Shown one piece after another: positions 52,790-54,832 of a stretch of DNA of 64,000 bases. The stretch comes from Patescibacteria group bacterium. GTDB taxonomy: Bacteria; Patescibacteriota; Patescibacteriia; Magasanikbacterales; UBA922. The notes under the pieces are model-generated. The model saw nothing but the letters and a program-made list of their open reading frames with translations. It had not been told where the DNA came from and ran no database searches. The position numbers and the translations under genes were made by a program. Position 1 is the first letter of the stretch, and each line of letters opens with the position of its first letter. The stretch is from NCBI GenBank assembly GCA_018823045.1, contig JAHJIX010000016.1, forward strand, positions 2,961 through 66,960, written 5' to 3'.

Positions 52790-54832
52790 ATGGCAAAAGA
52801 AACGTCACATATGAGGAAGAAAATTCGTACACGGCTTATATTTGTTGGTTTGGTGGCAGTACTTGGGCTTGCTTTTATTTTTCCAACACAGTTAAATAAA
52901 GCAATTGACGGGGTAAATAATACTGTTGCATTGGGTATCCCACGATTACCAGAACAAGGATTTTTGCTCGGTCTTGATTTACAAGGTGGAGCACATTTGA
53001 TGTATCAAGCAGATGTATCAAATATTCCTACAGATAATCAAGGTGAAGCAGTTGATGGCGTTCGTGATGTCATTGAACGCAGGATTAATGCACTTGGTGT
53101 GAGTGAATCAAATATTCAAGTAGCAAAAGTAGGAAATGATTATCGCTTAAATATTGAAATGCCAGGAATTGATGATGTGAGTACTGCAATCAATTTGATT
53201 GGAGAAACACCAATTTTAGCATTTAAAGAAGAAAATCTTGATCCGCCACGAACATTAACGGCGGAAGAAGCAGAACAAATTGAAACATATAATAATGAGA
53301 TGAGCGAACGTGCTCTTGCTGCAAAAACGGCATTAGAAGCTGGAACAGATATGGCAAGTGTCGCATCAGAATATTCACAAGATCCATCAAGTAAAGATAA
53401 TGGTGGTAGTTTTGGGTTTATTAATAAAAATACACAATATGGCCCTGAGGTATATAATTGGGCATCAACACATACTGATGGAGATATTTCAGATGTGATT
53501 GAAACATCATATGGCTACTTTACGCTTGTGCGCGGTGTAGAGCAAGAAGGTGAGCCTGAAGTAAGCGCAAGTCATATTCTTATTTGTTATCTTGGGGCAA
53601 CACAATGTAATGAACCAAAATATACAAAAGAAGAGGCACTAGCAAAAGCACAAGAAATTTTTGACATGGCAAATGCAGATAATTTTGCAGATCTCGCTGC
53701 TGAACATTCTACAGATCTTGCAAATAAAGATAATGGTGGTGATTTAGGTGCTTTTACCCGAAGTATGATGGTCCCTGCATTTTCAGATGCTGCATTTAAT
53801 GCAAATGTTGGAGAAATTATTGCACCAGTTGAAACAGATTTTGGGTATCATGTTATTTATAAAACAGATGAAGGAATCTTGCCTGAATACGATGTTTCAG
53901 GTGTGTTTATTGCAAAATTACAAGAACGAGATATTTTAGGACCACAAGATGAGTGGAAAAATACAGGACTTTCAGGAAAACAACTTGATCGTGCTGAAGT
54001 TGTCACTGATTCTCAAACAGGGTCAGTACAAGTATCTCTTCAATTTGACCAAGAAGGAAAAGAATTGTTTTCGGAGTTAACAGAAAAAAATATTGGGAAA
54101 CCGATTGCAATTTTCTTAGATGGTAATCCAATTAGTGTGCCAACAGTTCAATCAGTCATTACTGGTGGACAAGCGGTTATCACTGGGGATTTTACCATAA
54201 CAGAGGCACGTGAGTTATCTCAACGCTTAAATACTGGTGCGCTTCCTGTACCTATTGAGTTGATTTCTCAACAATCTATTGGTGCAACACTTGGTGCCGA
54301 GTCACTTGCAAAAGGTTTGACCGCTGGTATTATTGGTATTATCTTGGTCATGATTTTCATGGTGGGATATTATCGACTACCTGGTGTATTATCTGTGCTT
54401 TCATTATCAATATATATTATATTTACTCTTGCAATCTTTAAGTTGATTCATGTAACGTTAACGCTTGCAGGTATTGCTGGGTTTATCTTGTCAATTGGTA
54501 TGGCGGTGGACGCTAATGTGCTTATCTTTGAGCGATTAAAAGAAGAATTACAAGATGGAAAGAGCTTGAAAGCCGCGGTAGAAGAAGGGTTTATTCGTGC
54601 ATGGACATCTATTCGTGATGGAAATGCATCAACACTCATTACTTGTTTACTCTTAATCTGGTTTGGATCAAGTTTTGTACAAGGATTTGCGGCAACATTG
54701 GCAATTGGTATTTTGCTTAGTATGTTTACTGCAATTACCATTACTCGTTTCATGCTTCGCTATGTGGTCCCGTGGTTCCCATCACATGGAAACAAGTTAT
54801 TCCTAGGATATTCTTCAAAAAAAGAACAATAA
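52790..54832 (+). CDS. secD: Protein-export membrane protein SecD with two inserted parvulin (PpiC) PPIase-like domains in the periplasmic head
   Basis: SecD N-terminal TM and C-terminal 5-TM core ([26 protein letters not shown]). Inserted segments: [11 protein letters not shown] ... [58 protein letters not shown] (classic PpiC) and a degenerate second copy [20 protein letters not shown]...SYGYFTLV. Confidence 0.8.
   Translation: [680 protein letters not shown]

Follow-up and report, generated by a model that had tools for sequence, protein, structure and literature searches.

Here we describe a SecD protein that carries a parvulin module in its first extracytoplasmic region (P1). It is encoded on a 64,000-nucleotide stretch of DNA, referred to below as the window, from a Patescibacteria group bacterium (GenBank assembly GCA_018823045.1, contig JAHJIX010000016.1, positions 2,961 to 66,960). 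Between SecD_1st and the P1 head the secD product of 680 amino acids (aa) contains an insert of about 230 aa that Pfam resolves into two PpiC-type parvulin domains, a canonical inner one and a degenerate outer one, and the inner domain is nested in the outer. We regard this overall architecture, a SecD with a nested two-layer parvulin module, as nearly certain. Parvulin foldases at the exit of the Sec translocon are separate proteins, PrsA in monoderms and PpiD and SurA in diderms. Both parts of the protein belong to well-known families; what is new is the lineage-wide fusion with a nested permuted fold.

SecD identity and insertion site

The features of the host protein and its partner are as follows (TM, transmembrane segment; ORF, open reading frame; E, expectation value).

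52790..54832, + strand: secD ORF, 680 aa, with the parvulin module inside P1 (ORF listing; TIGR01129; Pfam)
52835..52882, + strand: TM1, aa 16-31, preceded by a Lys/Arg-rich N-terminus (sequence; AlphaFold helix 2-30; homology to Thermus SecDF)
53054..53233, + strand: SecD_1st, the N-terminal half of the P1 base, aa 89-148 (PF21760, E 1.2e-12; alignment to 3AQP)
53960..54250, + strand: P1 head subdomain, kept, aa 391-487 (PF22599, E 5.8e-30, profile positions 18-114 of 114; Thermus SecDF 146-246; translation check)
54254..54775, + strand: TM2-TM6 of SecD, aa 489-662, including D574 (PF02355; alignment to 3AQP)
54837..55868, + strand: secF, the partner subunit (TIGR00966, 264.8 bits against a cutoff of 160; PF02355, E 6.4e-57; Sec_GG)

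The 680-aa ORF is a genuine SecD, with its partner SecF encoded next door. The protein reaches 388.5 bits with the NCBIfam SecD equivalog-domain model TIGR01129 (cutoff 244.4), which matches in two stretches with the insert between them, and its top Foldseek matches are the SecDF structures 5YHF, 5XAN and 3AQP. Pfam, AlphaFold secondary structure and Foldseek together give the topology of a SecD, with TM1, a large external P1 composed of base and head, and five further TM helices. By homology, TM1 after the Lys/Arg-rich N-terminus puts the chain as far as about aa 490 on the outer side of the cytoplasmic membrane; as P1 is extracytoplasmic by homology to Thermus SecDF, the parvulins face outside. 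In the alignment to 3AQP, D574 is the equivalent of Thermus D340, and it is invariant among 43 homologues. D340 is reportedly the conserved TM4 Asp of the proton pathway, as described by Tsukazaki et al. in 2011. Since D574 matches this Asp, the SecDF motor looks intact. An identical protein is listed at NCBI on 3 contigs as 'protein translocase subunit SecD [Patescibacteria group bacterium]'.

The Pfam domains follow each other in the order SecD_1st (aa 89-148), Rotamase/Rotamase_3 in two stretches (best aa 252-360), SecDF_P1_head (aa 391-487) and SecD_SecF_C (aa 489-655). The first-pass annotation of the window, made from the sequence alone, had read the 680-aa protein as a SecD with inserted PpiC-type parvulins and had proposed such a domain scan; the Rotamase matches lie inside SecD as it predicted. 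Query residues 53-147 align with residues 27-117 of Thermus thermophilus SecDF (3AQP) and query residues 379-657 with residues 146-423. The strand at the end of the base reads PILAFKE here and AVLEFRI (residue 117) in Thermus, and the connector from base to head measures 231 residues here as compared to 28 in Thermus SecDF (117 to 146). Because the P1 head is retained, the module has been added to the base-head connector and has not replaced the head, which settles the question, raised with the first-pass annotation, of whether the parvulins replace or decorate it. The insertion site is shared by ten of ten divergent representatives, in which SecD_1st is followed by Rotamase and this by a P1_head match that enters the profile at position 17-20.

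Because the insert has SecD domains before and after it in a single frame, it lies within secD and is no prsA joined to it by a frameshift. The evidence supports a covalent SecD-parvulin fusion inside the first extracytoplasmic (P1) region, as had been suspected. The explanation that a separate prsA-like gene was joined to secD by a frameshift, a chimeric assembly or a wrong gene call was considered and rejected as having a negligible probability: nothing was found in its favor, the frame runs uninterrupted between the SecD domains on either side, the identical protein occurs on the 3 contigs mentioned above, and the same architecture recurs in more than 350 homologues taken from independent assemblies.

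Parvulin domains and active sites

The insert and the strand that follows it contain four elements.

53261..53539, + strand: outer parvulin (parv1), aa 158-250, alpha1 to beta4 only, degenerate (PF00639, E 1.9e-13; alignment to 1ZK6; residue counts; translation check)
53555..53869, + strand: inner canonical parvulin (parv2), aa 256-360 (PF13616, E 6e-27; Foldseek; Pin1 alignment; translation check)
53585..53608, + strand: C266-x6-C273, in the loop between beta1 and alpha1 of parv2 (cysteine conservation and covariation)
53882..53914, + strand: trailing strand, aa 365-375, the permuted beta1 of parv1, by which the outer domain is closed around the inner (covariation; coevolution; AlphaFold; single-parvulin homologues)

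When the two halves were scanned singly, parv2 reached 94.9 bits and parv1 51.6 and 48.6 bits, against gathering cutoffs of 21.7 for PF00639 and 22.5 for PF13616. The PF00639 alignment of parv1 enters at profile position 10, i.e. without the N-terminal beta1.

The landmarks of parv2 are beta1 SASHILI, S307-T-D309, GGDLGAF, M327, F331, T349 and FGYH354VIYK. Its closest matches in a Foldseek search of the PDB are Pin1 3IK8 (TM-score 0.85, root-mean-square deviation (rmsd) 2.0 A), the P2 domain of SurA (4G2P) and PrsA (6XD8), all with a TM-score of about 0.85. The residues were mapped by an explicit alignment to human Pin1, in a numbering that gives the known H59, C113, M130, F134, T152 and H157. 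In this mapping H262 corresponds to H59, S307-x-D309 to the S111-D112-C113 loop, L319 to L122, M327 to M130, F331 to F134, T349 to T152 and H354 to H157, and the GDLGAF motif is identical in the two proteins. Parv2 thus possesses the whole parvulin set, with the network H262, H354, T349 and D309 and the proline pocket L319, M327 and F331. D309 is offset by one residue from the equivalent of Pin1 C113; an Asp one position from the Cys equivalent is a variant reported for PrsA of Bacillus subtilis (bioRxiv 10.1101/2024.09.05.611430). Two other assignments were discarded, D318 of GGDLG as the catalytic Asp, as the Pin1 alignment places the C113 equivalent in the S307-x-D309 loop, and Pin1 S154 as the equivalent of T349, for which the alignment gives T152.

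The conservation of these residues was counted among 120 close homologues, which are the best 120 matches, and among 223 two-layer proteins that span several lineages.

H262: 120/120 close homologues; 217/223 two-layer proteins
H354: 119/120 close homologues; 219/223 two-layer proteins
T349 (T or S): 120/120 close homologues; 221/223 two-layer proteins
S307: 120/120 close homologues; 213/223 two-layer proteins
D309 (D or E): 119/120 close homologues; 177/223 two-layer proteins (Gly in 38, Cys in 4)
M327: 111/120 close homologues; 195/223 two-layer proteins
F331: 118/120 close homologues; 215/223 two-layer proteins

Within the network the active-site acid varies most, and the Cys found in the D309 column of 4 of the 223 proteins is the nucleophile of the Pin1 type.

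Of these features parv1 retains S196-x-D198 alone. GGDLG is replaced by GGSFGF, the Thr by E238, the beta4 His by F244 (mostly Asn in the homologues) and the beta1 His by G371, so that by alignment to the PrsA parvulin of B. subtilis (1ZK6) and by residue counts three of the four network residues are lost. Among the close homologues its mean identity to the window protein is 39%. Judged by these residues, parv2 appears catalytically competent and parv1 degenerate, in agreement with the initial description of one textbook parvulin and one degenerate copy upstream of it.

C266 and C273 are both present in 120/120 close homologues. Among 40 divergent representatives 16 have both cysteines, 24 have neither and none has a single one, and the pair ranks among the top coevolving pairs, with a mutual information (MI) of 0.34 after average product correction (APC). 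The two cysteines likely form an extracytoplasmic disulfide.

Nesting and circular permutation

The SecD proteins with a single parvulin provide the key to the strand order. In these the domain opens at helix alpha1 right after the LEFKE strand of SecD and continues through GGDL.F and FGYHIIKK (beta4) into an acidic linker, and only then does EVKASHILF follow, the His-bearing beta1. As beta1 stands after beta4, the domain is circularly permuted. The trailing His and the beta4 His are both kept in 9 sequences and both lost in 5, and the beta1 His alone is changed to Gln in 2.

In the window protein beta4 of parv1 and the trailing strand are separated by an entire canonical parvulin that has a beta1 (SASHILI) of its own. 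The canonical strand order beta1-alpha1-3-beta2-alpha4-beta3-beta4 is found in parv2 and not in parv1, whose beta1 comes after beta4 and after all of parv2. In the 40 divergent two-layer representatives the middle His is conserved jointly with the motifs of parv2, and parv1 and the trailing strand are degenerate jointly. Positions 244 (beta4 of parv1) and 371 (trailing strand) covary among the 120 close homologues, with His-His in 11, Asn-Arg in 79 and Asn-Ala in 11; every sequence with His at 371 also has His at 244 (Fisher 3e-13, without correction for phylogeny).

Coevolution was measured as APC-corrected MI over 223 inserts (effective number of sequences 177). The raw top pairs are mostly clade-specific indel columns (152-156 with 381-384), and lists of partners specific for each strand were used instead. 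The trailing strand has 31 of its top partners in parv1 and 9 in parv2, in an antiparallel register with i+j = 615 (367-248, 371-244, 372-243), whereas the middle strand has 38 partners in parv2 and 2 in parv1, with i+j = 618 (259-359, 262-356, 263-355). The strongest pair overall is S259-A321. Because the trailing strand pairs with parv1 and the middle strand with parv2, parv2 is placed within the beta4-beta1 hairpin of parv1. A serial layout, in which each domain is followed by its own permuted beta1, was ruled out by the same partner counts (38 vs 2 and 31 vs 9) together with the His patterns.

AlphaFold2 of the whole protein, run with a 43-sequence alignment, gave a mean predicted local distance difference test (pLDDT) of 80.8, about 90 over the insert, and a predicted TM-score (pTM) of 0.41, which leaves the arrangement of the large blocks uncertain. 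For the insert alone (aa 136-400) the values are 94.1 (pLDDT) and 0.78 (pTM), which points to a rigid unit. Both models contain continuous 24-residue strands at 242-265 and 352-375, which have the look of a two-stranded ribbon running through both domains and would be incompatible with a hairpin at 250-257. In Foldseek against the PDB, SecDF structures rank first, followed by SurA and, below it, by isolated parvulin domains; no solved structure in the PDB fits the two-domain unit as a whole, SurA aligning over 240 columns at an rmsd of about 15 A.

Secondary structure and coevolution together place the active parv2 between beta4 and beta1, within the hairpin of the inactive, permuted parv1. 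The first-pass annotation was right on the presence of two parvulin copies; their arrangement is not a simple tandem, the canonical domain being nested in the permuted one. Likewise, the span that it assigned to the parvulins, 53230-53880 or aa 148-364, covers the insert but misses the last element, the beta1-like strand of aa 365-375 (53882-53914).

Distribution and variants

A search of 1.84 billion cluster representatives was made, and the 150 closest SecD clusters (50% identity) were examined. At least one parvulin is present in 73 of the 150 cluster representatives, and the inserts fall into length classes of about 0-60, 120-160, 220-260 and 320-460 residues. The best 120 homologues (57-74% identity), mostly from Candidatus Magasanikbacteria, are of the two-layer form and have the same Pfam set in 120/120. 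The single-layer form occurs in Candidatus Moranbacteria, Parcubacteria and 'Patescibacteria group' entries, and two-layer and apparently three-layer forms in Candidatus Peregrinibacteria, with Rotamase in 120/120 top matches in either case. The module is also found in single-chain SecDF fusions of 1015-1100 aa from metagenome-assembled genomes of Candidatus Peribacteria and Peregrinibacteria. The scan that gave these fusions also matched, from one end to the other, SecDF loci of Halobacillus, Alkalihalobacillus and related bacteria, which comprise about 700 codons and have no room for an insert. The fusion is widespread in at least three lineages of the candidate phyla radiation (CPR) and is not rare, which answers the survey of SecD length and domain composition suggested at the outset.

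A third layer would exist in inserts of 320-460 residues, which appear to begin with two degenerate units and to continue with a canonical active parvulin followed by two trailing strands. Among the Candidatus Peregrinibacteria SecD proteins of 775-938 aa, P0156, P0154, P0165, P0195, P0229 and their relatives have inserts of 320-465 aa with apparently three layers, in P0229 possibly four, and their trailing beta1-like strands seem to be separated by a helix. Two further SecD representatives, P0152 (795 aa) and P0181 (776 aa), contain a long hydrophobic stretch past the start of the P1 head (e.g. WWQLIAYLVALGAGIAFVSSALGLFIG); it resembles extra membrane-spanning segments in the external domain and could reflect a different architecture or a misplaced alignment anchor.

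The nearest neighbor in the SecD core agrees on the presence of an insert in 84% of cases vs 50% by chance, and the number of layers changes often. The history would seem to be vertical for the most part, with layers gained or lost repeatedly, and is compatible with a single origin as well as with repeated gains and losses.

The variable number of layers among lineages is what would be expected of a spacer, and a purely mechanical or docking role was considered on these grounds. Here the module would be a rigid beta-ribbon that acts as a lever, stop or dock, for the cell wall, YidC/SecYEG or the pilus or S-layer machinery, and tunes the swing of the P1 head without contact to the substrate. 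The insertion exactly at the base-head connector and the predicted rigidity (pTM 0.78, two continuous 24-residue strands) agree with such a role, but it leaves the conserved catalytic and proline-pocket residues unexplained and has no known partner; we consider it improbable.

Comparison with known systems

Like the canonical SecDF of Thermus thermophilus (3AQP/5YHF) and Deinococcus (5XAM-5XAP), whose structures rank top in Foldseek and phmmer, the protein has an N-terminal TM, the P1 base and head, five further TMs, the proton Asp and an adjacent secF. It differs from them by about 200 extra residues, the two parvulins, in the connector from base to head.

PrsA (B. subtilis 4WO7/1ZK6, B. anthracis 6VJ4/6XD8) likewise carries a parvulin that is tethered to the membrane on the extracytoplasmic side, belongs to a monoderm-type envelope and works once Sec translocation is done, and its parvulin is likewise non-phospho-specific, with S-x-D, the Asp beside the Cys equivalent, and a similar fold (TM-score about 0.86). 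PrsA is, however, a separate lipoprotein dimer with the parvulin inserted in an NC (SurA-like) chaperone domain, whereas the module described here has no NC domain, a SecD host and a second, permuted parvulin. SurA (E. coli 1M5Y), the best sequence match of parv2 (E 3e-19) and the best Foldseek match of the insert, also has two parvulins, the first inactive and the second active. In SurA these are serial domains with canonical strand order and flexible links, consistent with the poor superposition noted above, in a soluble periplasmic protein with an N-terminal chaperone core. PpiD-YfgM at SecYEG (8ZHT; PMC9643414) is also a membrane-anchored, parvulin-containing chaperone at the periplasmic Sec exit, but its parvulin is inactive, it has chaperone domains, and it docks on SecY as a protein of its own and is not part of SecD. 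The independent polypeptide with lipobox, signal peptide or TM anchor that marks PrsA, SurA and PpiD is not seen here, the module being internal to SecD, and the scores of the protein with the NCBIfam PrsA, SurA and PpiD equivalog models are far under their cutoffs.

A functional precedent is the dome formed by Mdp444/436/489 on SecDF-SecYEG of Mycoplasma pneumoniae, in which PrsA-like parvulin lipoproteins are present and substrate density contacts one active parvulin (bioRxiv 10.1101/2025.04.25.650208, 10.1101/2024.09.05.611430). Alike are the attachment of parvulins to SecDF, the genome-reduced, wall-less or monoderm bacterium, and the combination of one active with several inactive domains; the dome is non-covalent and built of large lipoproteins with SurA-like domains, while the unit described here is covalent and minimal. 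The fusion is thus the covalent counterpart of the Mycoplasma SecDF dome.

Full-text literature searches found neither a SecD-parvulin fusion nor a circularly permuted parvulin described; many papers in subscription journals lay outside their scope, and an earlier mention is possible. The suspicion that the architecture had not been described has held to that extent, though it is widespread and visible in precomputed Pfam annotations.

Proposed function

SecDF uses the proton-motive force to swing the P1 head and thereby pulls substrates out of SecYEG (PMC12445088). We propose that the module is a SecDF-tethered, PrsA-like foldase or holdase. Outside the membrane and beside the substrate-binding P1 head, it would capture chains as SecDF pulls them from SecYEG, keep them unfolded and probably catalyze the isomerization of Xaa-Pro bonds, with the substrate presumably passed on to it from the head. 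The degenerate outer domain might act as scaffold, spacer or extra binding surface, like SurA-P1. The pattern of residue conservation suggests that the module has peptidyl-prolyl isomerase (PPIase) activity, and the fusion may have taken the place of a free PrsA; no separate parvulin gene was found in the 64-kb window, which is a fraction of the genome. This mechanism we hold to be somewhat likelier than the reverse, and architecture and foldase or holdase mechanism taken together, as the best explanation overall, to be reasonably probable.

Several observations weigh against it. D309 is replaced by Gly in 38 of the 223 two-layer proteins, and some single-layer proteins (P0136, P0176, P0183) keep the domain without any active-site marker; since some members have lost active-site residues, catalysis is not universally selected. 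The 680-aa protein has no Pfam match of the SurA_N or PrsA-NC type at E <= 0.1, and all residues of the insert are accounted for by the two parvulin folds. The NC chaperone domain is the essential part of PrsA, and PrsA can dispense with its PPIase activity for most of its function in B. subtilis (both PMC12445088). In addition, the placement of the module relative to the P1 head and SecY is not fixed by the whole-protein model.

The Gly at D309, the single-layer proteins devoid of markers and the dispensable PPIase activity of PrsA would fit equally with a non-catalytic holdase or substrate-binding extension, in which the parvulin folds merely enlarge the platform of the P1 head, like the inactive parvulins of PpiD and SurA-P1, and prolyl isomerization is irrelevant. 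The retention of the outer domain despite the loss of three of its four network residues, at the low mean identity given above, also speaks for it. We nevertheless think it unlikely, as H262, H354, T349, S307, M327 and F331 of the inner domain are near-invariant in three CPR lineages, beyond the need of fold maintenance, and as, in all proteins with a second layer, one of the layers retains the complete active-site set.

A more far-reaching form of the foldase proposal would couple the head swing driven by the proton-motive force mechanically to the module, so that each stroke feeds the chain into the active cleft; the fusion would then have replaced the free PrsA/PpiD foldases in the CPR lineages. 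Independently of the coupling, the module would represent the first natural circularly permuted parvulin, in what look like one to three layers. We offer these readings only tentatively.

Genomic neighborhood

The gene upstream of secD was assigned as follows.

49914..52718, + strand: secA-like ORF directly upstream of secD (SecA motifs read in the translation, no profile scan)

The gene order is secA-secD-secF, all on the + strand, and in the ORF listing secF starts 5 nucleotides after the secD stop. The neighborhood is of the housekeeping type, with murB, secA, secD, secF, dus, dnaG, rpoD and pilM. In the external domain of SecF about 55 residues (EESVEDVAMLVTESDTEVVVSTEGGETGVVAVTAEPVASEEEVPVARV) at aa ~100-152 (window 55134-55290) form an acidic stretch of low complexity, and the 279 positions of the TIGR00966 profile are spread across 335 residues of the protein. 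The 485-aa ORF directly 3' of secF (56153-57610, + strand) has a hydrophobic N-terminal segment and no Pfam match at E <= 0.001; the 286-aa ORF directly 5' of secA (48898-49758, + strand) has no Pfam match either. At the edge of the window (62018-63103, + strand) a PilM-type protein with the fold of a type IV pilus assembly ATPase is encoded (PF11104, E 1e-35), and pilins are plausible abundant Sec substrates in this organism.

GC skew is above 0 in every 2-kb bin of the window from 1 to 64000 (0.04-0.38) and the cumulative skew climbs monotonically; most long ORFs lie on the + strand, and the GC content of the window is about 31-42%. On this basis the window appears to sit within one replichore with a strong strand bias.

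Significance

Public databases annotate the fusion proteins plainly as SecD, which hides the fusion, though the parvulins are visible in the precomputed Pfam annotations. The nested permuted fold is of interest for protein evolution and engineering, as it shows that the beta4-beta1 hairpin of a parvulin accepts the insertion of a whole domain. A physical link between SecDF and a foldase bears on the question of how SecDF hands its substrates over to extracytoplasmic folding factors, and has so far been seen only as a recent, non-covalent case in Mycoplasma. A natural and widespread covalent fusion is Rosetta-stone evidence that the export motor and foldase activities work together, and it offers a compact single-chain system for the study of motor-foldase coupling; if the mechanically coupled form were true, the protein would be a translocation-folding machine paced by the proton-motive force in one polypeptide. 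For the CPR bacteria, the biology of whose envelope is largely unknown, the fusion is a lineage marker of that envelope.

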